In this document: positions 320 through 40,575 of the stretch, one piece after another
Layout: every line of letters starts with the position of its first letter
Numbering within the stretch: position 1 is the stretch's first letter
Source: an uncultured Oscillospiraceae bacterium
GTDB lineage: Bacteria > Bacillota > Clostridia > Oscillospirales > Oscillospiraceae
DNA length: 64,000 bases
Direction: 5' to 3'
Assembly: GCA_964370925.1 (NCBI GenBank)
Contig: CAYJLH010000004.1
Span: forward strand, 3,167 to 67,166
Program-made: the position numbers and the translations under genes
Notes under the pieces: generated by a model
What the model saw: only the letters and a program-made list of their open reading frames with translations
What the model was told of the DNA's origin: nothing
Database searches by the model: none

Positions 320-2941
320 ATGAAAGAACTTCCAAAGATTTACGACCCTAAAGCGGTTGAAAAAAAAATCTATGATATGTGGGTTAAAGGTGGTTATTTT
401 AAGGGCGTTATCGACCCCGAAAAGAAACCTTTTACTATAGTTATCCCACCACCAAATGTCACAGGTCAACTGCATCTTGGACATGCTTTTGACGAGACTA
501 TACAAGACGTTTTAACACGTGTTAAGCGTATGCAAGGCTATTCTGCGCTTTGGATTCCCGGAACTGACCACGCAGGCATAGCAACTCAAATCAAGGTCGA
601 AGAGGAACTTCGTGTTAAAGAGGGAAAAACTCGTTACGACCTCGGACGTGAGGCATTTTTAGAGCGTGTTTGGGATTGGAAGCACAAATACGGTAGCCGT
701 ATTGTCGAACAACTTAAAACTCTTGGTTGCTCATGTGACTGGGATAGAGAGCGCTTTACTATGGACGAGGGTTGCTCAAAAGCTGTGCGCGAAGTTTTTG
801 TTTCACTTTACGAAAAAGGGCTTATTTATAAAGGCAATCGCATTATCAACTGGTGTCCAACTTGCACAACTGCACTTTCTGATGCTGAGGTTAACCACGA
901 AGAAAAACCCGGTAACTTCTGGCACATTAAATATCCAATAAAAGACAGCGACGAATTCTTAATAATTGCCACCACTCGTCCCGAAACTATGCTCGGTGAC
1001 TCCGGTGTCGCTGTTAGCCCCGACGACGAGAGATATGCTCATCTAATCGGCAAAACATGCATACTTCCGCTGATGAACCGTGAAATGCCTATCATCGCCG
1101 ACGAATATGTTGACAAAGAATTTGGTACAGGTTGCGTTAAAATGACACCTTGTCATGACCCTAATGACTTTGAAGTCGGTCAACGTCACAATCTTGAGCA
1201 AATCCTTATCATGGATGAAAACGCTAAGATTATCAACGGCGGAAAATATAACGGCATGGACAGATACGAAGCTCGCCGTGAAATTATAAAAGACCTTGAA
1301 GAACTTGGTTTGTTAGTTAAAATAGAGCCACATAACCACAATGTCGGCACATGCTACCGCTGTGGAACTGTTGTCGAGCCTATCACAAGCCCACAATGGT
1401 TTGTTAAAATGGAACCTCTTGCGAAAGAAGCTATGGAAGTTGTTCGTGACGGGCAGATTAAATTTGTACCTGACCGCTTCGTAAAAACTTATGAAAATTG
1501 GATGGAAAATGCTCATGACTGGTGCATTTCTCGTCAACTTTGGTGGGGACATCGTATCCCTGTTTGGTACTGCTCAGACTGCGACCACATGACAGTTTCT
1601 CGTGAAGATGTCTGCGAATGTGAAAAATGCCAAAGCAAAAATATCGAGCGTGATGAAGATGTTTTGGACACTTGGTTCTCTTCTGCGCTTTGGCCTTTCT
1701 CAACTTTGGGCTGGCCTGATAAAACACCTGATTTAGATTATTTCTACCCAACTGACGTCCTTGTCACAGGTTATGATATTCTATTTTTCTGGGTTGCTCG
1801 TATGATTTTCTCTGCCAATGAGCACACAAAACAAGTGCCTTTCCACACTGTATTTTTCCACGGATTAATCCGTGATGCAGAGGGCAGAAAAATGAGTAAG
1901 AGCCTTGGAAATGGCGTTGACCCACTTGATGTCATCGACACTTACGGCGCTGACGCACTGCGCTTCAACATCATCACAGGCAACAGCCCAGGAAACGACA
2001 TGCGCTATTATAACGAGCGTTGTGAGGCTATGAGAAACTTTGCAAATAAGGTCTTTAATGCTTCTCGTTTCGTTATGATGAACCTTACAATCGAGAAAAA
2101 CGAGCTTCCCGAAAAACTTGAACTTGAGGATAGATGGATTTTATCAAAACTCAATACTCTTGCAAAAGATGTCTGCGACAACTTCGACAAATACGAGCTT
2201 GGAATTGCCGCCGGTAAAATTTATGACTTCATTTGGGACAGCTATTGTGACTGGTATATCGAGCTAATCAAACCACGTCTAAACGGTGACGACAAAGAAC
2301 TAAATCTTTCCGCTCAAAAAGTTATGCTTTATGTTTTGACAGAAATTTTGAAGTTACTACACCCATTTATGCCTTTCATCACAGAGGAAATTTGGCAAGC
2401 ACTCCCCCACGAGGGCGAGGCACTTATGATAGAGCGCTATCCGGAATTCACAGAAAAACTAAACTTCCCACAGGACGAAACTGACTTCGAAACCATCATG
2501 TCTGCTATACGCTCTGTTAGAAGCACACGTGCTGAAATGAATGTTCCTCCATCCAAAAAACCAACTTTGATTATCGTAACAGAGAAAACAGCTGTGTTTG
2601 AAAAAGGCCTAGTTTTCCTATCAAAACTTGCATATGCAGGTAGCGTTGAAATCTCAACAACTGCACCCGAAAGCCTCGACGGAATGGTTAGCGTCGTGAC
2701 TGATGAGGCGAAGATGTTCATGCCAATGGCAGAGCTTGTCGACCTCGACAAGGAGCGTGCGAGAATTCAAAAAGAAATCGAAAAAGCCGAAAAAGAGCTT
2801 GCAATGCAAGAGGGCAAACTGAAAAATGAAAAATTCATTTCAAAAGCGCCCGAGAATATAGTTGCTCAAGAGCGTGAAAAAGCCGAGAAAACAAAAGCAC
2901 TTCTTGAAAACCTCAAAGAGAGCTTAAAAAACCTAGGTTAA
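320..2941 (+). CDS. valS: valyl-tRNA synthetase
   Basis: 873 aa. Class I aaRS HIGH-like motif ([13 protein letters not shown]) and KMSKS (KMSKS present). C-terminal coiled coil typical of ValRS. Confidence 0.97.
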
Positions 2942-28624: not shown

Positions 28625-29998
28625 CTAGTTTTGTTTTAAATGCTTTGAATCTTCACCATACATAAGCTTCTTAAATGTAAATTTAAACATAATTGCCGTT
28701 GTTGTAACAGCGATAATATCCGCAACAGCTTCCGCCAAGAAAACAGCTGTCGCTTTGTCCTCAAAAAACATAGGTAAAATATGTATCAGAGGCACAAGAA
28801 GGATTACTTTTCGCAAAAATGCAAGGAAAAGAGAAATTTTTGCGTATCCGACCGCTAAATATGTAGTTTGGCAAGCAATTTGAATTCCAAAAATCACCAT
28901 ACCTGCAAAATAAATTCGCATAGGTCTTACAGAATACGCAAGAAGCTCTGGGTCACTGTTAAAAATCCTCACAAGTTGCTCAGGGAAAAGCATTATAACT
29001 GTACACATTACTACAGAATATGTGAGACAGATTTTTAGCATTACAAAAAAACTTTCTCTGAGTCTGTCTAACTTTTTTGCACCGAAATTGTAACTTAAAA
29101 TAGGCTGTGCGCCCTGAGTAAATCCAAACATTGGCATAGTCATAAACTGCATCAATTTCAAAAACACTGTCATTGCACCAACAGCAATATCGCCTCCATA
29201 AATTTGAAGTGAGCGATTGAAAGTGACAAGCACTAAGCTCTCAGTAATTGCCATTACAAAAGGAGCCGATCCTAAAGAAACGCTTTTTTTAAGTAAAACG
29301 GGGTCAATTTTCATGTACTGTGGCTTAATTTTTAGCGCCGATTTTCTAAACAAAAACACTGTAGCCCAAACAGCTGAAATTGCCTGAGAAATAACAGTGG
29401 CAACCGCCGCGCCTTTAACGCCCATGTTGAGTAGGAATATGAAAATGGGGTCAAGTATAATGTTTGCAACCGCACCGACAGCAACCGTCACCATCGCAAT
29501 TTTTGTATAACCCTGTGCCGTTATAAATGCATTCAGCCCTAGAGATAACATGACAAATACAGTTCCGATTAAATATGTATCTGTATAATCTTTAGCATAG
29601 CCTATAGTGTCTTCACTTGCGCCAAAGGTCATCAAAATCGTTTCCGATGATGCGAGCAAAGCAAAAGTCAGGGCAATTCCGATTATAATTAGTGCTGAAA
29701 AACATGTGCCTAAAATCCGCTCGGCTCTCTCGAGATTTTTCTCACCCATACTTATGGACACAAGTGGCGCACCACCTCTTGCAATAAGCGAGGAAAACGC
29801 CGCAACCGCTACCAGAACGGGCATACTAACACCAACACCTGTCAGGGCGAGTCTGCCAATTTCGGGGATATTACCGATATAAATACTGTCAACAACATTG
29901 TACAGCACATTTACTAATTGAGCTACCACAACCGGCATGGCAAGTCTCAACATCAATGGTCTTATAGGCTCTGTTCCTAAAAACTCTCTATTGTTCAC
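28625..29998 (-). CDS. MATE family efflux transporter
   Basis: 457 aa MatE. Confidence 0.9.
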   Translation of the reverse strand: MNNREFLGTEPIRPLMLRLAMPVVVAQLVNVLYNVVDSIYIGNIPEIGRLALTGVGVSMPVLVAVAAFSSLIARGGAPLVSISMGEKNLERAERILGTCFSALIIIGIALTFALLASSETILMTFGASEDTIGYAKDYTDTYLIGTVFVMLSLGLNAFITAQGYTKIAMVTVAVGAVANIILDPIFIFLLNMGVKGAAVATVISQAISAVWATVFLFRKSALKIKPQYMKIDPVLLKKSVSLGSAPFVMAITESLVLVTFNRSLQIYGGDIAVGAMTVFLKLMQFMTMPMFGFTQGAQPILSYNFGAKKLDRLRESFFVMLKICLTYSVVMCTVIMLFPEQLVRIFNSDPELLAYSVRPMRIYFAGMVIFGIQIACQTTYLAVGYAKISLFLAFLRKVILLVPLIHILPMFFEDKATAVFLAEAVADIIAVTTTAIMFKFTFKKLMYGEDSKHLKQN

Positions 29999-30218
29999 TT
30001 AGTCCCTCCTTGAAAACGAATGTTTCTATTATATACCCATTCTCGCAATATTTCAAGTTTTTTAACTAATTTTTATGGACAGCTAAAATCCCCTACGCCA
30101 CAGTAAGCACACAGGCGACCCGATGATACCTCCGAAAATTTGGTTTGAACTAAACTTTCAGAACGGCTCAAAGGGTCGCCCATTTTAATTTTTATTCACT
30201 TTTATGGAGCGCTACAAC

Positions 30219-30440
30219 TCAGCCTCCGGCAACTGGTGGAAATAATGCGACAATGTCGTCAGCTTTCACAGTGTCCTCAGGTTTTGAGTGCATACCATTA
30301 ATAAGACAAATTGCAAGGTCATCAACAGAGATATTAAGTTCTGCCAAAATATCAGAAATTGTATTCATTTTTTCAGGTGACATGAAGATTATTTTATCTC
30401 TGCCCTCTCTGAAAAATGCAAAAAGTCTCACTTCAATCAT
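30219..30440 (-). CDS. MoaD/ThiS-family sulfur-carrier protein
   Basis: 73 aa beta-grasp ending in FPPVAGG, like MoaD (...FPPVTGG). Confidence 0.7.
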   Translation of the reverse strand: MIEVRLFAFFREGRDKIIFMSPEKMNTISDILAELNISVDDLAICLINGMHSKPEDTVKADDIVALFPPVAGG

Positions 30441-30462: not shown

Positions 30463-32265
30463 TTATTTATATTCGCTAAGTCCCAAACGCTCAAGAGTTG
30501 CCTCTGTTGGGAAAGCAGAATCCCAACCACGTACGTCATAATATTGTGGAAGAGTTACAGGTAGTTCACTAATCATACCCTTAGATGGGCCGTCTGGGAT
30601 AACTTCTTCAAGCAAACGCTTAGGAAGCTTATCGTCCTCGGGTTTCATGCCTGCGTGCTTATTAAATTGGCGCTCAATATTATAAATACGCTCACCAACT
30701 TCAAGCAATTGCTCCGGTGTGTAAGTTGTGCCTGTTGCAGCATTTAAAAGACCTGCATATTGTGGCGCACCCATAGCAAATGATGAGAACAAGCAAAGTC
30801 CCATGCTGTCAATAACAGCAGTTAGGTCTTGGAATATTTTACACCAAGTTGCTTTGCCCTCTGTTGCTGTGCGGTCTAGTTGCTCAGGAAGTCCTAGAAC
30901 CTCTGGGGAAATTAGATATCCACGAACATGGCAACCGCCACGGTTACTTGTTGCATAAGTTATGCCAATTCCTTGAATAGCACGTGGGTCATATGCTGGA
31001 AGCTCTTGCTTCTTAACGCTCATTGAAACTTCTGGATGACCATAATGCTCACAAAGTCTAAAGCTACCGTCAGCCATTAGTTTTGCAAGTGGAATTTTTC
31101 CTTCACCCATGCGCTTTGTCCACTCGATGATAGCTTCTGAACTACCCCAAGCTAGTGGAACACCCTCACATTCCTCTTCCTTGATTGCGCCGATTTGGTA
31201 AAGTTCCATAGCCGCAGCGATAGTACAAGGAGTTGAAATCGCATCGAGTCCGTATTCATTACACCAGTAGTTTGCCTCATTGATAGCAGTAAGGTCACTG
31301 ATATTACAGTTACCGCCGTATGCCCATAGTGGCTCATACTCAGGGCCACCAGTGACTTTTCCGTCGATTTCAATCATACGACCGCAACCCATAGGACAGC
31401 GATGGCAGAAACTTTGCTTTACAAGGTGTTTTTCTCTTAATGTTTCTCCCGATGTCTCGTCAGCCGGTGGGAAATATGCTTCTTGCCAGTTACGAGTTGG
31501 GAAAGCTCCTGTGTTATTGATAATGTTAACCAGAACAGCTGTACCATAAGTTGGTAGACCCTGACCGGTAACACCGTTTTCACGAATTAGTTTCATGCTC
31601 TCAGCTGTTACCGCTTTCAAAGCGTCAGCATCAGCTGGTTTAATAACTGTACGTGATGCACTTACTGTGATAGCCTTAAAATTCTTGCTACCCATAACCG
31701 CACCAACACCACTACGACCTGCCGCACGGTGCTTATCATTCATGATACATGCAAGCAGTGATAGATTTTCACCTGATGGGCCAATGTTCAAAACTGCACA
31801 CTTTGGATAAATTTCTTTCAATTTATCGTCAATGTGTTCGCTCATCATGCCCATATAGGGACTTGCGTCCAAAAGTTCAATCTTATCGTCCTCAATGTTG
31901 AGGTAAACAGGTTTTTCTGATTTTCCCTCGACAATAATTCCGTCATAACCTGCATATTTAAGTTTTGCACCCCAAACACCACCTGAGTTTGATGACGCAA
32001 TCATGCCTGTTAGCGGTGATTTTGTCACAACCATGTATCTACCGGCTGTTGGTGAAGCTGTTCCTGTCATTGGACCTGCTAGGAACACCAATTTGTTTTG
32101 TGGGCTTAGTGGTTCAACAGTTGCGACACCCTCATCCATCAAAATTTTTGTACCCAATCCACGACCGCCAATAAACTTTATAGCATCGTCTAAGTTTAGG
32201 TCTTCAACTTTGATAGCGCCCTCTGTTAGGTTAACACGAATAATTTTTCCGCAATATGATGTTGA
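30463..32265 (-). CDS. aor: aldehyde:ferredoxin oxidoreductase (tungstopterin enzyme family)
   Basis: AOR N and C domains. Start moved to ATG 32265 (MSTSYCGKIIRVNL) with RBS GAGGAGG. Confidence 0.9.
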   Translation of the reverse strand, partial: STSYCGKIIRVNLTEGAIKVEDLNLDDAIKFIGGRGLGTKILMDEGVATVEPLSPQNKLVFLAGPMTGTASPTAGRYMVVTKSPLTGMIASSNSGGVWGAKLKYAGYDGIIVEGKSEKPVYLNIEDDKIELLDASPYMGMMSEHIDDKLKEIYPKCAVLNIGPSGENLSLLACIMNDKHRAAGRSGVGAVMGSKNFKAITVSASRTVIKPADADALKAVTAESMKLIRENGVTGQGLPTYGTAVLVNIINNTGAFPTRNWQEAYFPPADETSGETLREKHLVKQSFCHRCPMGCGRMIEIDGKVTGGPEYEPLWAYGGNCNISDLTAINEANYWCNEYGLDAISTPCTIAAAMELYQIGAIKEEECEGVPLAWGSSEAIIEWTKRMGEGKIPLAKLMADGSFRLCEHYGHPEVSMSVKKQELPAYDPRAIQGIGITYATSNRGGCHVRGYLISPEVLGLPEQLDRTATEGKATWCKIFQDLTAVIDSMGLCLFSSFAMGAPQYAGLLNAATGTTYTPEQLLEVGERIYNIERQFNKHAGMKPEDDKLPKRLLEEVIPDGPSKGMISELPVTLPQYYDVRGWDSAFPTEATLERLGLSEYK

Positions 32266-32325
32266 CATAAAAAAATCCTCCTCATTTTTGAATAATATTT
32301 CGATTTTACGTAAAAATAAGCACGC

Positions 32326-32415
32326 AAAACCAAAATCCTTTCCAAATACGGGAGGCATCACAATTACGGCGGATACCCTTAGGCTTATTTCCATATCAAA
32401 TAAGCTCGGATTTAT
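32326..32415 (-). promoter_or_regulatory. candidate molybdenum/tungsten-cofactor (Moco) riboswitch in the aor 5' leader
   Basis: Minus-strand transcript carries blocks AAAUCCGAGC, the hairpin gcuuauuu-gauaugg-aaauaagc, then UAUCCGCCG, GCCUCCCG and GGAAAGGAUUU. A P1 AAAUCC/GGAUUU closes the element. The blocks resemble my recollection of the Moco RNA motif (CCGAGC, CCGCC, CCUCC, GGAAAGG). Preceded by the promoter at 32422-32450. Confidence 0.4.
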
Positions 32416-32421
32416 AGTACT

Positions 32422-32450
32422 ATATTACCATAATTCAAATCGACTGTCAA
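32422..32450 (-). promoter_or_regulatory. candidate sigma-A promoter for aor (TTGACA, 17-nt spacer, TAATAT)
   Basis: Minus-strand hexamers at 32445-32450 and 32422-32427. Confidence 0.4.
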
Positions 32451-32496
32451 TTATAGTCTGTCAAAAAAGTATAAAAAGGACCATGGGAATGTTTAG

Positions 32497-33411
32497 TTAA
32501 CCTCCCATGGTCATATGATTTACCAAAAATCTCCTGTAAAATTCCTCTCTAATCTGAAAACTACCAATCATTTTAAGTTCCGACCTCGTAATAGGGATAT
32601 TAAACCTATTATCTGCGCCAATTTCTGTCACGCTAAGTCTTATATCTTTGAAAGCAAACAAGTCCTCCGCCAGCGAATAAACACCGTCCATTTCATCGAA
32701 AAATGAAAAAAGTTGCGCCCTTGAATATGCTAGATTTTTGACTTCAAGTTCCTCTTTCGTATCGCTGTTCCAAAAAAGTTCTTCTTTGACCTCAGCATAA
32801 AAAGCAGTAGCCCTTTCTAGCATATCTTCCTCAGTTCGTCTGCGTTTGCACATTTCAGAAATTTCAAGTTTGTACATTTCTTCGATACGTTTTCCGCAAA
32901 TTCCACGCATAGTAAAAGTGCGAATTAGCAAAGCACATGTCCGCTTTTTCCAGTCTGTAAAACTTGGATTATATGTGGCGGCAAATGCAATGATTTTTCC
33001 GCAATCTTCTGCGATATCGCCCTCCGAAATGTGGCTTTCGAAGTCAATTCCGACACAAATTTCGTCTTTTTCACTGAAAATATAGTTGCGTAAATTGTTA
33101 TCAACACGCAGTTTACCAGTCGCTTTGTGGTATTCTAGTAACCACTCCGCGAGTGCTATTGCGTGTTTTTCCTCCATATTTTCCACTAATTCGGAGTATA
33201 AAATTCCGTCGATATGCTTGTAACAGAGCATGTTTTCTGATGTCGAAACCAAGCTTGGAACTGCAACTTTTTTTGACTGTAAAAGGGCAATCATAGCCTT
33301 TTCACGTTCAAAATCCTCTGTATTTTTGAAAAGTTTTTTTACAATTTCCCCATCACCCCTTACAGTATTTCTTTTGGAAATAAAGGTGATTTCAGTGGAA
33401 TTTTCTTGCAT
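32497..33411 (-). CDS. hypothetical protein with protein-kinase/APH-like fold (small-molecule kinase candidate)
   Basis: 304 aa. VDNNLRNYIF...VGIDFE resembles the HxDxxxxN...IDxE catalytic and Mg-binding motifs of aminoglycoside/choline-kinase-fold enzymes. Last gene of the ECF operon. Confidence 0.45.
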   Translation of the reverse strand: MQENSTEITFISKRNTVRGDGEIVKKLFKNTEDFEREKAMIALLQSKKVAVPSLVSTSENMLCYKHIDGILYSELVENMEEKHAIALAEWLLEYHKATGKLRVDNNLRNYIFSEKDEICVGIDFESHISEGDIAEDCGKIIAFAATYNPSFTDWKKRTCALLIRTFTMRGICGKRIEEMYKLEISEMCKRRRTEEDMLERATAFYAEVKEELFWNSDTKEELEVKNLAYSRAQLFSFFDEMDGVYSLAEDLFAFKDIRLSVTEIGADNRFNIPITRSELKMIGSFQIREEFYRRFLVNHMTMGG

Positions 33412-34175
33412 TATTTCAAGCCTCCACGCTTAAAGCTAATCTCAATATCTCCGTCCTCAGTATAGCCGTTTAGCTCTTTAACTACAGACAAAACAGCATT
33501 TTTTAAGAGATTTTCGACAAACGGAACCATTTCAATGTTATGACCATCGACCTTTAGCTCAATACTTGGCTTTTTCAGTACGCAATCCTCGGCTGTCGCC
33601 TGTTTTTTCAAGATTTTACCTGTCAATTCCCTACATGTACAGCCACACGCATCACAACATTTCGGATCCATATTCGGCATAGGTGAAATCGCATGTTGCA
33701 TGACAAATTGAACGAGTTTTTCAGGCTCGTCAAGAGCATGAATTACGGGATAATCACCAAAACTTTTTCTCCCATCATTTGCCAAAACACCCGAAACTCC
33801 GACCACTCTTTCGTCAAGTCTCTCCAAAACTTCTTGCTCAGTGTGAGCCGTCAAAATTCTGGGGACATTGAGGTCCGTAACTCCCTCTAAAATCACATAA
33901 TCATGGTCATAGTGTCGCAAAATATCCTCAATCGGTAGCATGGTTTGGTACAGAACATCTGTCTCAAACATTCCTCTCGCTGTGACTAATTGCGAGCCTG
34001 CATTTTTATGACGGTTAGTATTTGAGTCCTCCACAGGGTCAATTTTAAAAAGTTCGAAGTGTATTTCTTTAACCGAGCCGACAGAAAACCCAAGCTTTCT
34101 AAGTCCGCTGATAATCGTCTCGCACACAGTTGTTTTTCCAGACTTTGTAATGCCATTAACTGCAATAACTTTCAT
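33411..34175 (-). CDS. MobB-like P-loop NTPase with C-terminal Cys-rich domain
   Basis: N-terminal GITKSGKTTV Walker A and the overall pattern of MobB (molybdopterin-guanine dinucleotide biosynthesis protein B). C-terminus has CCDACGCTC. Confidence 0.55.
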   Translation of the reverse strand: MKVIAVNGITKSGKTTVCETIISGLRKLGFSVGSVKEIHFELFKIDPVEDSNTNRHKNAGSQLVTARGMFETDVLYQTMLPIEDILRHYDHDYVILEGVTDLNVPRILTAHTEQEVLERLDERVVGVSGVLANDGRKSFGDYPVIHALDEPEKLVQFVMQHAISPMPNMDPKCCDACGCTCRELTGKILKKQATAEDCVLKKPSIELKVDGHNIEMVPFVENLLKNAVLSVVKELNGYTEDGDIEISFKRGGLK

Positions 34176-34187
34176 AATTTTTCCTCC

Positions 34188-34916
34188 CTATCCATAGTAA
34201 AAAATCATAGTCGTAGCCGAAATTGCGAGCAATAAAACTATGGCGACAACATCAATTCCAACCATTTTTACTTCTATAAAACTCGTGCGTTTTTTCATTG
34301 CACCAAAACCTCTAGCCTCCATTGCCATTGCCAAATCCTGTGATTTTATAACAGCGTCGGCAACAACAGGCGAGAGTAAATATCCGTATAATTTTATCCT
34401 TTTTCCGAAGGGAATTTTTTCAACTTCAATCCCTCTAAGTTGAATTGAAACCATTGCATCTGTAAAACTTTCCATAAAAAATGGAATAAATCTTAGCGTC
34501 AACATAATCATAAATGAAAAAGTATAAGGCACATGCAATTTTGAAAGCGAGGCTATAACCCGCCTGCTGTTTTCACTTTCCATGATTGCCGCTGAGGAAA
34601 TCAATGTAAAAAATCGAAGTCCCATGGTCACACCACGCAAAAATCCGTCGGTGTAAATAATTACGAATTCCCCGTATGAAAGCAGTGGTTCACCCGACCT
34701 TACAAATATAATTTGAATCACGCAAACTCCGATTAATATGTTTATAAAGCGTTTTAATTTGTTAAAAAGGAATTTGTAATTCGCCCCAAAAAGTAGCATT
34801 AACACAAAGGAAAACACGGCAATTCCGAGCAAATACAGCCAATCTTTGAACAAAATCGACATTGATGTCGTTAACAAAATCCCAAGCAGTTTTACCCGTG
34901 GGTCAGCATTTTTCAT
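34188..34916 (-). CDS. ecfT: ECF transporter transmembrane T component (CbiQ/EcfT)
   Basis: 242 aa, 5-6 TM, conserved ARG signature (MEARGF). Confidence 0.85.
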   Translation of the reverse strand: MKNADPRVKLLGILLTTSMSILFKDWLYLLGIAVFSFVLMLLFGANYKFLFNKLKRFINILIGVCVIQIIFVRSGEPLLSYGEFVIIYTDGFLRGVTMGLRFFTLISSAAIMESENSRRVIASLSKLHVPYTFSFMIMLTLRFIPFFMESFTDAMVSIQLRGIEVEKIPFGKRIKLYGYLLSPVVADAVIKSQDLAMAMEARGFGAMKKRTSFIEVKMVGIDVVAIVLLLAISATTMIFYYG

Positions 34917-35574
34917 TTACAATTCCTCCTTTCGACACTTTGACAATGCGTGCCTCAGGAAAGCGAGAAAAAAGCTCCGTATCATGGGAAATCACAGCAA
35001 TTCCAAGTCCTGATTTCACAAGCTCATCCATAATCGTGTATAAGGTTTTGCGGTTTGCCACATCTAAGCCTGTTGTAGGCTCGTCAAGCATGAGATATTT
35101 GATGTCTTGCATAAGAATTGAGGCAAGCGCAAGCCTTTGTTTTTCGCCACGACTGAGACGATATGTGCTTCGTTTTGCCAGATGTTTTAGTGAAAATCTG
35201 TCCAAAAGTTCTATGGCTTTTTTTGCGATTTCATCGGGGTTTTGGTCTAAAACCGAACCTATAAATGTCATCTCATCCCAGACTGTTGCCGTAAAAATCT
35301 GCTTTGACGGCTCTTGAAAAAGGTAGCCTACATATTTTCCCATTTGCCCAAGAGTGAAGTTTGTTGCGTCATTTCCAAAAACCGTATGCCCCATGCCCTC
35401 ACATTTTAAAATCCCTGCACAGAGCTTCAAAAGAGTTGATTTTCCGCTTCCGTTATTCCCCTCAACAAGACAAATTTCGCCTGTTTTCAAGGTGAATTCT
35501 TCGGCAGTAAATCTAAAAGCGTTTCTTGGATACTGAAAGGAAATATTTTTAAGTGTGATTGCATGTTCACTCAT
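34903..35574 (-). CDS. ecfA: ECF transporter ATPase component
   Basis: ABC ATPase with Walker A (GNNGSGKST), signature (LSRGEKQR) and Walker B. Confidence 0.85.
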   Translation of the reverse strand: MSEHAITLKNISFQYPRNAFRFTAEEFTLKTGEICLVEGNNGSGKSTLLKLCAGILKCEGMGHTVFGNDATNFTLGQMGKYVGYLFQEPSKQIFTATVWDEMTFIGSVLDQNPDEIAKKAIELLDRFSLKHLAKRSTYRLSRGEKQRLALASILMQDIKYLMLDEPTTGLDVANRKTLYTIMDELVKSGLGIAVISHDTELFSRFPEARIVKVSKGGIVNEKC

Positions 35575-36263
35575 AAACTCTCTCCTCCGCTCCCCTTTTG
35601 TGCCACAAGTTTTCCATCAATAAATGCATAAATTTTATCAGCAATAAACAGATTTTCCTCGTCGTGTTCGACCATCAAAATTGCTTTCCCACGCTTTTTC
35701 AGCTCGACTATACAATCCATAATCCTTGCTGTTGCCTCCCTGTCGAGCTGGCTTAAAGCCTCGTCGAACAATAGCACCTGTGGGTCTAGCGTTAAAACTG
35801 CCCCCAAGGCAACAAGCTGTTTTTGGCCACCCGAAAGACGTGTAGGACTGTGAAATCTATAGTCCTCCATGCCGACAATTTTTAGAGCTTCATCAATTCT
35901 TTTTGCGATTTCTTCCCTCGGTAAACCTATGTTTTCAGGACCAAAAGCGAGTTCATCCTCAACCGTAGGTGCAAAAAGTTGTGCATCAGGATTTTGGAAA
36001 ACTATGCCGACTTGTCGCACAACTTCATGCAACGGCATTTCGGCTACAGCCTTACCCGAAAGTAGTGCTTCGCCCTTTAATTCGCCCTCTATACTCCTCG
36101 GAATTAGCCCCGCTAATATCAGACAAAGTGTTGATTTTCCGCAACCTGATGGCCCTGTAATCGCAACACATTCACCCGAATTTATAGATAGATTTGCACC
36201 GCTTATAAGTGGATTTTGCCCTAGGTAGGAGAAGAAAATCTCCCTTGCTTCAAGCTGTATCAT
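35571..36263 (-). CDS. ECF transporter ATPase component (second)
   Basis: ABC ATPase (GPSGCGKST, LSGGQKQ). Start set to ATG 36263 with ATGA coupling. Confidence 0.85.
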   Translation of the reverse strand: MIQLEAREIFFSYLGQNPLISGANLSINSGECVAITGPSGCGKSTLCLILAGLIPRSIEGELKGEALLSGKAVAEMPLHEVVRQVGIVFQNPDAQLFAPTVEDELAFGPENIGLPREEIAKRIDEALKIVGMEDYRFHSPTRLSGGQKQLVALGAVLTLDPQVLLFDEALSQLDREATARIMDCIVELKKRGKAILMVEHDEENLFIADKIYAFIDGKLVAQKGSGGESL

Positions 36264-36793
36264 TGTATCACAACTTCCTGTACAAATTTGCACCAACGCT
36301 GTGAAAATTCTGAGCTTTTTATAATCATTAGGTATGGCCCCATGCCACCCTCTGATTTTGGTTTTAACGGTTCATCATCCATCGCAAGGCAGATATAAAC
36401 ATTATCCTCCGTCATGATTTCCTCTTTTGTCAGCGCTGAGGTATAACCGTCAAGTGAGCGCACTTCTATAGTTTCACTCGAAATTTCCATATCCGCAAAT
36501 TCGAAAACATCCTTTAATTCAACGCCCGAAAAACTAACATCAGTCGGGTCTGTATTGCTCGTATCCATAACCGCAGAAACGGGTACAGGGTTAAGTGACA
36601 ACATGTCATCCATAGTGATTTGAACCGTTGTTTCACCTGATTTTAGCTCAAAAACCGCATTCATTTCAAGCTCTTTTTTGTAGCTGACATCGCCGGCATT
36701 TAGCCTTGAAAAAATTGTAATCATAATAACAAGCACTGCAATGATTACAAGCAATATTTTTGCCTGATTATTAACATTTTTCTTGTATTCCAT
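36260..36793 (-). CDS. membrane-anchored extracytoplasmic protein with one sulfite-oxidase-family-like (Oxidored_molyb-like) module
   Basis: N-terminal TM anchor. C-terminal ICLAMDDEPLKPKSEGGMGPYLMIIKSSEFSQRWCKFVQEVVI resembles the LAYEMNGEPLP..HG.PLR.VVPG..G...VKWL..I tail of MsrP/YedY/SUOX Moco domains. Confidence 0.45.
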   Translation of the reverse strand: MEYKKNVNNQAKILLVIIAVLVIMITIFSRLNAGDVSYKKELEMNAVFELKSGETTVQITMDDMLSLNPVPVSAVMDTSNTDPTDVSFSGVELKDVFEFADMEISSETIEVRSLDGYTSALTKEEIMTEDNVYICLAMDDEPLKPKSEGGMGPYLMIIKSSEFSQRWCKFVQEVVIQ

Positions 36794-36805
36794 AGTTTTA
36801 CCCCT

Positions 36806-38287
36806 CTATTTTATCGTGAAAAATGGAATACACATATCTTCGTACTTAAACTCGCCGTGGTCTCCCAATTTTTCACCAATACTTGTGTCATGTTGTCCGT
36901 GGTCAGAAATTATATAAGTAGTCCCCGAAAAAGCGGAAAGCATTTCGTTGACATAGCCCTCGATTTCATCGAGTTTTTTTATTGCTTCGTCTGAATACGT
37001 CCCATAAGTGTGGGAAATATCGTCATAGCCGTGGAAGTGTACAAAGACTAATTCGTGTTCCTCTTCTATCGTTTTCATGGCAGAAGCAAAAACTTCATCG
37101 TCAGTCGAGCCGTCAGCATTTTCATCTGCGTTTAAAATCGGCGAAACACTTGAATTCACAAGTTTTGAATATCCCTCAACCAAAACACCATCGACATTTT
37201 CAAACATGTCAGGCACTAAAAGTTCACGCTCTGAGCGCTCAGTTACGCCGTTTATGTCCGGTGTTTCCCCAGTTATCATCGCCGCAAGTGCCACATTTGA
37301 TATACTGGGCATAACTGTACGCATTTTTTCCACTGTATGCTCTTTCGAAAGTTCTAAGCCGTGCATTTCGTATGCTTTATAGCCCAGCCCGTCGATATGA
37401 ATTACCAAAACATCTCCCTCAGTGTTTTCAACTATGCCTTTCAGGTCTGTTATAGATGCCTCGGGTGCATCTTCCCAAACTCCAACTATGTCATGAATTC
37501 GGGTTTTTCCGTCGGCATCAACGTAGTCGGCAGTGTTTCCTCTCCAGTCGAAATAACCGTCAAGAGATACCATTTGCTCTGACCCATCACCGAAATAAGC
37601 AAGCGCTTCCCCACCATTTGAGTCAATATAGCTCGAAATCGGAACCATAGGTCGGCGAGTATAGGCGCTAACACCAAGTCCGTTTTTTTCTGCATTTCCC
37701 TCGACGACAGACATTATAACACTATCTTCAAGGAACAAATTTCCGTACGAAATTTCATAACCGCTCTCACCCGAAATTGTGCGCAAACACGCCTGTTCAG
37801 GGTGCATAATTTCTGCAACTAGTACAATATAGTCGATGTTTCTGATGCCTGCCTGTGGCGGAAAATTGGGAGCACTTATGGAAAATCCCGCAGTTTCATT
37901 CCAATAAAGCAAAATACTTTCATCAATATCATCTTTTGAGATTTCAGCCATAACACCATCCGGTGAATGAAAAATCACTTTAATTTCACTACCCAAAGGA
38001 ACAGCTTCATTTAGCACATTTATAAGCGGTATTGCCGGAAAATTTTCTCCATCTTTTTCAACTGTTGTGGTTTCATAATCCGAAAAGTCCGTCAGCGTAA
38101 TTTCGGTTTCGACATCGCCTGTTATGGTAATAGGGCTTCGCTCTCCCGACAAAAATGAGATTTCAGTCGGTGCAACTTCTTCTGTTTGTGGTGATATCTG
38201 AGGTGAGTTACTCGCCTGTTCCTGACATCCCGAGAATATAAAAAGCGTCGCAAGCGATAGAACTGTTAAGCTAATTTTCTTTTTCAC
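36806..38287 (-). CDS. lipoprotein: N-terminal SUOX-like module fused to an alkaline-phosphatase-superfamily (nucleotide pyrophosphatase/phosphodiesterase-like) domain
   Basis: Start set to GTG 38287 (RBS GGAGGA, then MKKKISLTVLSLATLFIFSGC lipobox). C-terminal DHG.HD metal-ligand motif (ISDHGQHD) typical of the AlkP/NPP core. Confidence 0.55.
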   Translation of the reverse strand: MKKKISLTVLSLATLFIFSGCQEQASNSPQISPQTEEVAPTEISFLSGERSPITITGDVETEITLTDFSDYETTTVEKDGENFPAIPLINVLNEAVPLGSEIKVIFHSPDGVMAEISKDDIDESILLYWNETAGFSISAPNFPPQAGIRNIDYIVLVAEIMHPEQACLRTISGESGYEISYGNLFLEDSVIMSVVEGNAEKNGLGVSAYTRRPMVPISSYIDSNGGEALAYFGDGSEQMVSLDGYFDWRGNTADYVDADGKTRIHDIVGVWEDAPEASITDLKGIVENTEGDVLVIHIDGLGYKAYEMHGLELSKEHTVEKMRTVMPSISNVALAAMITGETPDINGVTERSERELLVPDMFENVDGVLVEGYSKLVNSSVSPILNADENADGSTDDEVFASAMKTIEEEHELVFVHFHGYDDISHTYGTYSDEAIKKLDEIEGYVNEMLSAFSGTTYIISDHGQHDTSIGEKLGDHGEFKYEDMCIPFFTIK

Positions 38288-38918
38288 TGGTTTCCTCCAA
38301 CTCTTTGGGCATAGGTACTGAAAAACCATTGCCTTTTTGTTTTTCATCTTTTGTGATTTGTCTGCCTTGCAAAATCCCGAGGCGTCTTACGTTAGAGCCG
38401 ATTGAATGTGCAACCAAACCACCCAAACCGCCAGATAGTGCAGATGCAGTTAGTGATAGCATCAATGGAACAAAAGATAGGTTGAAAATCGCAAGATTCA
38501 CCGAAAAGCTACCTGCCATGTTGGCAACAACTCCGCCAAGAAAACAGCAAATCGCACAATCTGCCCTGTGCCTCATAATCAAATATAAAAGGTCAATTGC
38601 AATTCCGGGCATGGTGTAAGTTAGAATACTCGCCGCACCATGAGAGCCAAGCGCGCCTGTTAGTGTAACAACCGCACCTTGTATCAAAGCAACGACAAAA
38701 GCCGTTCCCCATTTTCCTGTAATGCTCTCCCCCAACACAAGGAAAGCCATATAAAAACCGCCTGCAACCACACCGCCGGGTATAAAAAGTGGCCCTGTGA
38801 TGATTTGTGCAAGCGGAACAATAATCGCCTTAATTGCTATGCCCATAGCAGCAACCATGGACATAATGCAGTAATCTGCCAGTGTGAAATATGGTCTTTT
38901 TATTTTCAAGAGTAACAC
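38271..38918 (-). CDS. ECF transporter substrate-specific S component (unassigned family)
   Basis: 215 aa, 6 TM, small hydrophobic core typical of ECF S components. Encoded with ecfAA'T. Confidence 0.65.
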   Translation of the reverse strand: MLLLKIKRPYFTLADYCIMSMVAAMGIAIKAIIVPLAQIITGPLFIPGGVVAGGFYMAFLVLGESITGKWGTAFVVALIQGAVVTLTGALGSHGAASILTYTMPGIAIDLLYLIMRHRADCAICCFLGGVVANMAGSFSVNLAIFNLSFVPLMLSLTASALSGGLGGLVAHSIGSNVRRLGILQGRQITKDEKQKGNGFSVPMPKELEETSEKEN

Positions 38919-38994
38919 TCCTTTTCACTATTAGGGCAGATGCATCTGCACCTACCCTAATAAAATAACTCGTCATCTTGTAGTATTACAAGAA

Positions 38995-40575
38995 TTAATC
39001 AATAACAATTTGAACTAGATATTTCGCCCAGTTATTTGCTGTGAAGTTTTCGCTGACTGCAAACCAAACTTTGCCGTCGCCATCGCTTTCGATATATTCG
39101 CCATCTTGATATAGTGCAAACATTGATTGTGGGTCGTTTAGCATGTCGGGTGTTAGTTTGATTTCATATCCGTCAGAAGCGATAACTGTTATTGTGCTTT
39201 CTGGGTCAGCACCAACAAAGTTTGCAATTTCTGACCAGTGAACACCTTTGTAAACACCGACAACTGTTTCACCAAAAGAGTTTGTGCGTGAGATTTCATG
39301 CTCTAGTTGTGGTAGTGCCATAAAATCTTCTTCTGTGATAGCTTTTGCTTCGCCACCAACTGTGATAGTTAAAAGTGCGCCTTCAACAGCTTCTGTTTCA
39401 ACTTCTTCGCCTGCTTCTTCTGACACTGTTTCACCTGAAACCAATTCGCCTGATGGAACAATTGAAGCTAGGTATTTGACTTTTCCGCCGCCTTTAGCAT
39501 CGCCAAAGTCATAACCTTCGAATTCAGCTCTGATATAGCCCTCTTCTTCGTCTGGATAGATTTTTCCGAATTCAATAGCGTCACCAGGAATAACTGTCTC
39601 ATATCCGTCGCTTGCGATGAATTTATACTCGCTGTAACCGTTAATTCCCAGTGTATCAAGTAGTGTTGCAACATCTGTTTCTGTTCCGAAATAAATAGCT
39701 GTTGAACCAGCTTTAACTAGGTCAAGTTGCTTAACACGCATGCCTAGGTTTAGTGTTTCTGAGAAATATTGTGGTGCATTTGTTTCCATATCTTCGCTAC
39801 CCTCAAGTTTTGAAACATAGCAAGTGAAGAATACATCAGCATTTTCTGTTTTTTCGTGTCCATCACGAGCAATTAAAGTAAATACTTCTGTTTCATTTTC
39901 AGGAAGGAATGCATCAAAATATGCTTGAAGTGAGTATGATTCAACCATTGTTCCGTCATAGTCTAAAGTTTCAGGTGTTAAAGTTGTCGCATTTTCAAAG
40001 AAAAATTGAACTTCTGCAACCATTTCTTCGCTTGCAGCCGCAGCTTCACCTGCACCAATTTCAATCATTGATAAATCTTTAACCCAGAACATAGCGCGTT
40101 TTTCAGGAACTGCACTTCTAGGTGTTTCAAGGACTTCACCGTTAAATGTAAGAACGATGTAAGCGCCTGTTTCTGCATATTCGTCGGCTGGTACGTTCAT
40201 AACATAACCGTCAGCCGCTGTGAAAGTCAAGCCACCGACATCTGCCAAGTTGATTCCATTTTCTTCAAGAACTTTTGCAATTGAAATGCCCTCAAAAACG
40301 ATTTCTGAGCTTTCGCCTTTTGAGTCTAGTGATGTTGTTTCAATTGTTTCAAGCTCCATAGCTTTCATGTCTGCACCGGTAAGTACGATGTCAACACCCT
40401 CACCTTTGATTGCAATTTCATAATCGTCAGCAAGTCCGCCCTCAGTTGATGCCTCGGGGCTAACTTCAGCACTTGCCACGGGGCTTTCTTCCGGAGCATC
40501 TGTTTCACTTGAACATCCGGCAAACACCAGCATAAGCAAAACAAGCGCAAGGGATAATAGTGTATGCTTTTTCAT
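38995..40575 (-). CDS. lipoprotein with three tandem SUOX-like (Oxidored_molyb-like) modules
   Basis: Lipobox LVFAGC. Three ~150-aa repeats, each carrying ..DGY...P......(Y/F)..(N/D)GE.......G....W.(K).L..I(V/E)I (e.g. FNGEVLETPRSAVPEKRAMFWVKDLSMIEI and DGDGKVWFAVSENFTANNWAKYLVQIVID). Confidence 0.55.
   Translation of the reverse strand: MKKHTLLSLALVLLMLVFAGCSSETDAPEESPVASAEVSPEASTEGGLADDYEIAIKGEGVDIVLTGADMKAMELETIETTSLDSKGESSEIVFEGISIAKVLEENGINLADVGGLTFTAADGYVMNVPADEYAETGAYIVLTFNGEVLETPRSAVPEKRAMFWVKDLSMIEIGAGEAAAASEEMVAEVQFFFENATTLTPETLDYDGTMVESYSLQAYFDAFLPENETEVFTLIARDGHEKTENADVFFTCYVSKLEGSEDMETNAPQYFSETLNLGMRVKQLDLVKAGSTAIYFGTETDVATLLDTLGINGYSEYKFIASDGYETVIPGDAIEFGKIYPDEEEGYIRAEFEGYDFGDAKGGGKVKYLASIVPSGELVSGETVSEEAGEEVETEAVEGALLTITVGGEAKAITEEDFMALPQLEHEISRTNSFGETVVGVYKGVHWSEIANFVGADPESTITVIASDGYEIKLTPDMLNDPQSMFALYQDGEYIESDGDGKVWFAVSENFTANNWAKYLVQIVID

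Follow-up and report, generated by a model that had tools for sequence, protein, structure and literature searches.

By what means is the synthesis of an aldehyde:ferredoxin oxidoreductase (AOR) adjusted to the cofactor that the enzyme needs? The question is raised by a stretch of 64,000 nucleotides from an uncultured Oscillospiraceae bacterium (contig CAYJLH010000004.1; this 64-kb stretch is called the window throughout and provides the numbering), in which the leader preceding a gene for AOR and a gene for a small MoaD-like protein contains an element resembling the riboswitches for the molybdenum cofactor (Moco) and the tungsten cofactor (Tuco, a tungstopyranopterin). Aptamer, leader and both genes all lie on the minus strand. 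Taken as a whole, the statement that a Moco/Tuco riboswitch lacking helix P3 heads the AOR-moaD transcript and acts there as a translational ON switch appears moderately probable to us. In this statement, we infer which ligand is bound, that control runs in the ON direction and that the scheme is kinetic.

Identity and conservation of the aptamer

When scanned with cmscan against Rfam 15 at gathering threshold, the window yielded two matches in the whole 64 kb. One of them is RF01055 (Molybdenum/Tungsten riboswitch aptamer, the Moco RNA motif) at 32423-32319 (-), which reached 45.8 bits at a gathering score of 36 and an E value of 9.6e-8 over the 64-kb window. Model positions 1-135 were matched, with those of the P3 hairpin deleted. 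The original prediction had proposed a Moco-type riboswitch at this site, possibly a P3-less variant, and had named an RF01055 search beforehand as the test that could refute it; both the class and the loss of P3 were borne out by the Rfam alignment.

The aptamer proper comprises 81 nt (32333-32413, (-)) as delimited by the RF01055 match, by its fold in isolation and by covariation, and on its own it folds into P1-P2-P4-P5. The interval proposed originally (32326-32450) covers the element but mixes promoter with RNA. Closing helix P1 is formed by AAAUCC (32413-32408) and GGAUUU (32338-32333). J1/2 (GA) is followed by P2, a perfect 8-bp hairpin (GCUUAUUU at 32405-32398 and AAAUAAGC at 32390-32383) with the loop GAUAUGG. 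P3 is missing, as between P2 and P4 only the CUAA of J2/4 is found. In P4, GGGUAUC (32378-32372) pairs with GAUGCCU (32359-32353) around a 12-nt loop (CGCCGUAAUUGU, 32371-32360), and in P5 CC (32352-32351) pairs with GG (32343-32342), after which J5/1 (AAA) leads back to P1. All conserved RF01055 blocks are present, namely CCGAG after P1, GGG...CCUCCC flanking P4, GUNUUU in the P5 loop and GGAAAGG before the 3' strand of P1. The blocks CCGAGC (32409-32404), CCGCC (32372-32368), CCUCC (32355-32351) and GGAAAGG (32343-32337), the P2-like hairpin and the AAAUCC/GGAUUU closing helix listed in the original prediction are indeed all found on the minus strand, but CCGCC was wrongly taken for a block of the Moco family: it sits in the variable P4 loop, where relatives read CCACC, AACC or UCC.

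The element agrees with the Tuco subclass of RF01055 as described by Regulski et al. (2008; PMC2408646) in its P1-P2-P4-P5 architecture, in the CCGAG, GGG...CCUCCC, GUNUUUGG and AAAGG blocks, in the lack of P3 and in its position before the genes of a tungsten enzyme and a MoaD-like protein. It departs from the RF01055 canon in that neither a GNRA tetraloop on P4 nor the 11-nt receptor bulge in P2 is present according to the RF01055 alignment and a coordinate check. Of the receptor, nothing but UAUGG is retained, in the loop of a plain 8-bp P2 hairpin, and the 12-nt P4 loop begins with CGCC and contains CCGUA. Most of the retrieved metagenomic members do have GAAA plus CCUAAG...UAUGG. Because members without the tetraloop-receptor pair have been reported (PMC2408646), its absence marks a variant and does not exclude membership in RF01055.

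Conservation was followed in 20 loci from GTDB representative genomes that encode close AOR relatives. An RF01055 match lies directly upstream of the AOR gene and on the same strand in 14 of the 20. Further leaders reached via protein homologues carry the motif as well, mostly judged by reading and, for the related locus L152, also by Rfam. Altogether, dozens of AOR leaders carry the element at this site, with compensatory changes, before genes whose products are only 60-87% identical. In a 14-sequence alignment of AOR-leader aptamers, 90.9% of the cells are paired in the structure named above and 18 pairs have changed on both sides. The covariation score of 0.496 compares with 0.206 in column shuffles and is reached by 0/500 of them, and as a control, pairing falls to 33-48% when the partners are slid by 1-3 columns. 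Changes on both sides affect 8/8 pairs of P2, 4/6 of P1 and 3/7 of P4, while P5 is invariant; the columns of the conserved blocks are invariant or at least 90% conserved, and the core nucleotides are invariant. The comparison of orthologous leaders that the original prediction had called for thus confirms both the blocks and the covarying helices P1, P2 and P4.

One might still ask whether a chance match or a decayed, non-functional riboswitch relic has been picked up, given that the score exceeds the gathering score by only ~10 bits, that the element has neither the P4 tetraloop nor the P2 receptor and that cmscan marks four P4 positions as non-canonical. The low E value in 64 kb, the invariant core, the recurrence with compensatory changes in dozens of AOR leaders and the location of the element exactly between a conserved promoter and a Shine-Dalgarno (SD) sequence speak so clearly against this explanation that we regard it as effectively refuted. 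There is hardly any doubt in our minds that the element belongs to the Moco/Tuco riboswitch class. It is a further member of an already known family, and the association of this family with AOR is likewise already known.

The leader, its predicted alternative fold and the proposed direction of control

A sigma-70-type promoter is located at 32422-32450 (-). It consists of a -35 box TTGACA (32450-32445), a 17-nt spacer, a TG (32430-32429) and a -10 box TAATAT (32427-32422), just as the original prediction had described, and with a score of 10/12 and the TG extension it is the best in the promoter scan on its strand near the gene. Promoter-like matches as a class are not enriched in the region (9 vs 6.9 +/- 2.6 in shuffles). 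On reading, a TTGACA/TTGACT box followed 17-18 nt on by a -10-like hexamer is seen at the equivalent place in L001, L003, L005 and L011. Going by the -10 spacing only, transcription likely starts near 32415, so that P1 would follow 2 nt later. A strong intrinsic terminator (32463-32512, (-); stem GACCAUGGGAGG../..CCCAUGGUC, then a U-rich tail) closes the upstream gene (32497-33411); it folds with a minimum free energy (MFE) of -19.8 kcal/mol (z = -4.26; 0/200 shuffles fold as well) and carries the stop codon UAA of that gene (32499-32497) in its loop. The element therefore heads a transcription unit of its own, that of AOR, with its own promoter. The SD sequence GAGGAGG (32283-32277, (-)) lies 49 nt beyond the closing helix of the aptamer, very close to the ~50 nt predicted originally, and 8 nt upstream of the AUG (32268-32266, (-)).

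Unconstrained folding of the full leader yields an MFE structure of -47.6 kcal/mol that is not the aptamer fold. Its centre is a 16-bp hairpin at 32297-32336 (-) (AUUUUGGUUUUGCGUG, loop CUUAUUUU, UACGUAAAAUCGAAAU), the 5' arm of which shares 4 nt (AUUU) with the P1 3' strand, making the full hairpin and P1 mutually exclusive. Stacked on this hairpin, the conserved aptamer core CCUCCCGUAUUUGGA (32341-32355, (-)), made up of the 3' end of P4 and of P5 with its loop, serves as anti-SD segment and pairs over 14 bp with the SD region UUCAAAAAUGAGGAGG (32277-32292, (-)), including the segment UUCAAAAAU (32292-32284, (-)) just 5' of the SD. Furthermore, codons 3-6 (CAUCAUAUUGC, 32261-32251) pair with the loop and 3' strand of P4 (32367-32356), and the MFE structure in this way brackets the whole initiation region including AUG and first codons (32251-32268, (-)) by pairing to the aptamer. 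The probability of the SD being unpaired is 0.00 in the unconstrained ensemble vs 0.68 with the aptamer closed, and the sequestered fold is 12.2 kcal/mol more stable than the aptamer fold in a nearest-neighbour model that ignores tertiary and ligand energy. Besides the aptamer core, no second CCUC-like or CCUCC-like sequestor was found on reading the leader. Two further candidates were rejected: an intrinsic terminator in the window leader, as no terminator-like site exists on the minus strand and the central hairpin lacks a U-tract, and a pairing of the P1 5' strand with GGAUUUUU 3' of the SD, which is not conserved in L003.

Eighteen AOR leaders, whose linkers are unrelated, share this design (window, L001-L005, L011, L020, L149-L152, L035, L040, L072, L116, L154 and L160). 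A hairpin at the same position is built from different sequences in L001 (UUUCGGAU/AUCCGAAA) and L003 (UUCGGUU/AACCGAA), and the segment 5' of the SD repeatedly provides a CAAA-type complement to the invariant UUUG (AACAUGGGAGG in L116, AUAUGGGAGG in L005, UCCAAAGAGGGAGG in L011). Pairing of the initiation codons barely recurs, with only a short GAUG/CAUC part in the MFE structure of L003. In a second lineage (L009, L010, L158 and L163), the SD pairs with the P1 3' strand (UCCUUUUCU) and the P1 5' strand AAAGGA mimics the SD, an arrangement whose predicted folds also follow an ON logic. L153 buries its SD in a different way.

Two kinds of controls were run. First, the linker was randomised 100 times per leader with aptamer, SD and start held fixed. 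The gap of 12.2 kcal/mol in the window was reached by 0/100 of these shuffles (mean 4.1), and the native 14 bp in 11% of them. Among 16 leaders, the native gap was reached by 0/100 shuffles in seven, and in ten the fraction was at or below 0.05. Second, duplexes of the core with the 35 nt preceding the start average -16.4 kcal/mol in 16 AOR leaders vs -13.1 in 61 control regions with GGAGG/GGGGG SD sequences from the same loci (Mann-Whitney p = 3e-4). Core-SD pairing in part exceeds the trivial complementarity of CCUCC and GGAGG. Within the folding model, the existence and the non-random stability of the alternative fold are established computationally.

We propose the following scheme. The 81-nt aptamer, which lies in the 5' leader of an AOR-moaD mRNA with a promoter of its own, would be transcribed first. 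Without ligand, the downstream hairpin (32336-32297) would invade the P1 3' strand, the SD region would then pair with the aptamer core and the first codons with the 3' strand and loop of P4, such that the initiation region would be buried and translation would be off. Upon ligand binding, P1, P4 and P5 would be locked, the core would be unavailable and the SD single-stranded, allowing translation of AOR and probably of MoaD. A large Fe-S/tungsten apoenzyme would in this manner be made only when its cofactor is available. An ON switch is the only switch that the sequence offers, since the aptamer core is the sole sequestor, no terminator is present and the SD is free once the aptamer is folded. 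Control is probably kinetic, i.e. co-transcriptional, because the sequestered fold is ~12 kcal/mol more stable.

Several points weigh against this scheme. An energy gap of this size is too large for the ON state to be maintained at equilibrium by ligand binding alone. Any strong SD can pair with CCUCC, and 41% of the window linker shuffles retain core-SD pairing in their MFE structure; the duplex of the core with the SD region of the window (-15.5 kcal/mol) ranks only at about the 20th percentile of the control SD regions, and the tests treat the leaders without correction for relatedness. L155 shows no alternative fold; here, the aptamer is the MFE structure and the SD is half-open in both states. 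This leader (L155-L157, about 560-700) precedes an AOR protein from a Lachnospiraceae bacterium that occurs in 565 blocks of the collection and is the most widespread relative. In the terminator-type leaders L013-L015, L023 and L089, the terminator is kept in both states according to MFE folds, and for this reason we do not assign a direction to them. Their P1 3' strand is part of a hairpin, and the terminator's 5' arm could pair with the 3' arm of that hairpin, giving a four-segment chain that is compatible with an ON logic. In the literature, we found neither a relevant report on an ON-type Moco/Tuco riboswitch or an AOR-specific study nor a report of direct Moco or Tuco binding to any member; in vitro binding was left aside by Regulski et al. 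because the compounds are unstable (PMC2408646). The only experimentally characterised member, that of Escherichia coli moaA, is an OFF switch with its SD inside P1 as concluded from genetic evidence (PMC2408646), and for Eubacterium limosum a scheme of sequestor and antisequestor, not of a core acting as anti-SD, has been put forward (PMC11725836). Finally, the operons of relatives (L150-L154 and L155-L163) run from AOR via ThiS/MoaD (73 aa) to a ThiF/MoeB-like protein and then to MoaA or MoaC, that is into biosynthesis genes for which negative feedback is usual.

Could the same riboswitch therefore be an OFF switch, by which the cofactor represses AOR-moaD via an undetected sequestor, Rho-dependent termination or mRNA decay? 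The moaA precedent and the genes for molybdopterin (MPT) synthesis in the relatives' operons favour this possibility, and so do the moaA-like arrangement (P1 3' strand as SD, start codon within 14 nt) in half of the metagenomic Moco RNAs retrieved with a core pattern (62/124) and the finding that two Tuco-controlled operons of E. limosum are up at transcript level under tungsten limitation (PMC11725836). On the other hand, this OFF arrangement occurs in 0/6 of the AOR-linked metagenomic Moco RNAs. In the window, the SD lies well beyond P1, the leader has no SD-complementary segment except the aptamer core, closing the aptamer leaves the SD mostly unpaired and the minus strand offers no terminator-like site. 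Moreover, the stacking of the P1-competing hairpin beneath the core-SD helix would serve no purpose in an OFF design. We therefore judge control in the OFF direction to be unlikely, albeit worth keeping in sight, and prefer the translational ON switch.

The platform of this putative ON switch is unlike both types described in 2008, which have either the SD inside P1 or an intrinsic terminator (PMC2408646). The window element shares with E. coli moaA the RNA family and the action on translation, but the latter has P3 and the tetraloop-receptor pair, carries the SD in the P1 3' strand, has been shown to be OFF and controls biosynthesis genes, whereas the window element is predicted to be ON and precedes a cofactor-using enzyme (PMC2408646). 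A further comparison is with the element preceding the wor1 operon (WorSL-ABC) of E. limosum, one of five P3-less RF01055 elements reported for this organism in 2024. Again, a P3-less RF01055 RNA is situated before an AOR/WOR-family gene of a gut Firmicute, a small 'W-processing' gene is part of the operon, and translational control via a sequestor of the ribosome-binding site and an antisequestor has been proposed, although its direction was not established (PMC11725836). There, a separate hairpin is the sequestor and the antisequestor overlaps the 5' aptamer helix, while in the window the 3' core of the aptamer itself would be the sequestor (PMC11725836). The enzymes also differ, as E. limosum has a bifurcating WorABCSL and the window a monomeric AOR.

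A parallel in logic is a translational ON riboswitch of another aptamer family and for another ligand. In the add adenine riboswitch of Vibrio vulnificus, nucleotides of the ligand-free aptamer pair with the SD and start region, and ligand-stabilised folding sets these free. Unlike in add, the predicted anti-SD in the window is the most conserved and presumably ligand-proximal core, and a linker hairpin competing with P1 would nucleate the sequestering helix.

Regulated genes and the nature of the ligand

The regulated gene (30463-32268, (-)) encodes an AOR of 601 aa (AOR/WOR family, monomeric type) with the domains AFOR_N (3e-75) and AFOR_C (9e-139), and its closest solved structures are those of tungsten AORs (PDB 9g7j_A, 4e-215; Pyrococcus furiosus AOR 1aor, 1.6e-194). 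It is followed after 22 nt by a gene with a GGAG of its own (30219-30440, (-)) for a MoaD/ThiS-family protein of 73 aa, which ends in ...PPVAGG and matches ThiS (5.9e-9) and, weakly, moaD_arch and moaD. The combination of a tungsten-type AOR and MoaD that had originally been read from the sequence is in full accord with these assignments. In more than 40 related loci a MoaD homologue comes after AOR, and co-transcription of the two genes in the window is probable. In the window, the operon comprises AOR and MoaD only, and the next gene, encoding a MatE efflux protein (28625-29998), has its own promoter. Between moaD and this promoter, an 8-nt inverted repeat (GGCGACCC at 30180-30173 and GGGUCGCC at 30121-30114, (-)) encloses ~50 nt. 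No U-tract follows it and the region 30114-30180 has no Rfam match at gathering score; the repeat may act as an operon terminator of atypical form or as a stabiliser.

A copy of the AOR protein in the public database (P0001) has 643 aa and starts at an ATG at 32394, inside the loop of P2. The real start is almost certainly 32268, because the SD lies 8 nt upstream of it and homologues as well as PDB AORs align from residues 1-6. Almost certainly, the annotated N-terminal 42 aa of the database entry are a translated riboswitch.

Which cofactor is sensed? Regulski et al. defined the motif and split it by the presence or absence of P3, and they found P3-lacking RNAs almost exclusively with Tuco or MPT genes, such that the P3-less subclass has been assigned to Tuco in the literature (PMC2408646). 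Tungsten specificity of the window element is predicted by extension of this rule. Conceivably, the RNA instead responds to Moco, to molybdopterin without metal or to the cofactor with either metal, and the loss of P3 does not encode specificity for tungsten. Removing P3 failed to switch the specificity of the E. coli RNA, exceptions to the rule have been listed and the same study contains no in vitro ligand-binding test (PMC2408646). Aptamers with P3 also precede two AOR orthologues in our set, L152 (79% protein identity; 1054-1174 (+), P3 GCCGGGG...CCCCGGC, matched by Rfam) and L162 (76%; about 530-650 (+), P3 GCCGA...UCGGC, by reading). These two orthologues weaken the rule, and P3 status is not a strict tungsten marker. 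Against a ligand that is not specific for tungsten stand the near-perfect correlation of P3-less RNAs with Tuco genes (PMC2408646), the lack of P3 in all five E. limosum elements (PMC11725836) and in most AOR leaders studied here, and the fact that the AOR-family enzymes with solved structures are tungstoenzymes. We consider a ligand other than Tuco, or in addition to it, rather improbable and regard Tuco as the preferred ligand of the putative ON switch.

A possible loop contact, neighbouring genes and wider meaning

Nearly all tetraloop-less aptamers in our set have a P2 loop ending with GG and a P4 loop beginning with CC. In the window, UAUGG in the P2 loop (32397-32391, (-)), the retained half of the 11-nt receptor, can be written against CCGUA in the P4 loop (32371-32360, (-)) with 5 bp. 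Corresponding stretches are UUAUGGU/ACCGUAA in L005 and GGUGUGG/CCAUACC in L150 with 7 bp each, and UAUGG/CCAUA in L153 with 5 bp by hand and a run of 6 in scoring. The signal is strong only in L005, L153, L004 and L150 and weak, i.e. confined to GG:CC, in L002, L003, L149, L151, L072 and L155. As a lead, these loop sequences suggest that a loop-loop (kissing) contact may replace tetraloop-receptor docking. A kissing helix between the two loops is not claimed, as only 67.9% of the cells pair in the 14-leader alignment and the shuffle p for the window is ~0.04-0.14. Opinion among us is evenly balanced on the wider proposal that AOR-linked Tuco riboswitches form a distinct variant, in which ON switches would use the core (CCUCCCGURUUUGG) or, in the second lineage, the P1 3' strand as anti-SD and a P2-P4 kissing contact would stand in for the tetraloop-receptor pair.

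Upstream of the riboswitch, a cluster of genes on the same strand (32497-40575, (-)) encodes two proteins with an Oxidored_molyb domain (526 and 177 aa), a protein resembling the S component of energy-coupling factor (ECF) transporters (ABC_cobalt, 215 aa), a phosphodiesterase/PglZ-like protein (513 aa), two ATP-binding cassette (ABC) ATPases, the ECF T component CbiQ, a MobB/Fe-S protein and an unknown protein of 304 aa. The cluster may serve in ECF-type uptake connected with the metabolism of the Mo/W cofactor. In L001, the order ABC-CbiQ-MobB-unknown-riboswitch-AOR is preserved. In L011, homologues of the Oxidored_molyb, S-component and phosphodiesterase genes (1-2338, (-)) are divergent from AOR and are preceded by a longer RF01055 element of their own (2534-2705, (-); 52.7 bits, 172 nt), which supports a role of the transporter-like cluster in Mo/W cofactor metabolism. 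A second Moco-like RNA preceding the ECF/MobB cluster of the window was not found in an E-value-threshold Rfam scan of 26-46 kb.

No Pfam or NCBIfam model matches the 304-aa protein (32497-33411, (-)), which is encoded just upstream of the riboswitch and conserved there in L001-L003. Its C-terminal 83 aa exist as a separate small open reading frame directly before the AOR riboswitch in L153 (637-885) and L005 (2556-2804). The two closest relatives, L002 (148-301 (+), 100 bits) and L003 (1126-1261 (+), 55 bits), carry another RNA, Clostridiales-1 (RF01699), ~1.5 kb upstream of their AOR riboswitch; it is not present in the window at gathering score. Elsewhere in the window, a T-box leader (RF00230, 51-273 (+), 143.9 bits) precedes, as is ordinary, a class I tRNA synthetase gene (320-2941 (+)) whose product has a Val_tRNA-synt_C arm, most likely valS.

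For annotation, the gain is one more instance of RF01055 and the correction of a mis-called AOR start that runs through a riboswitch. The 81-nt aptamer and its 65-nt platform would furthermore provide compact constructs for a class in which in vitro binding has been impractical due to unstable cofactors (PMC2408646). For Moco/Tuco riboswitches that precede cofactor-using enzymes, the direction of control has been left open in the papers considered here. If the ON reading is true, gut and other anaerobic Firmicutes would tie the production of tungsten AORs, enzymes linked to aldehyde detoxification and short-chain fatty acid metabolism, to the supply of Tuco at the level of translation, and the cofactor would license the synthesis of its apoenzyme, the opposite of what the only characterised Moco riboswitch does.

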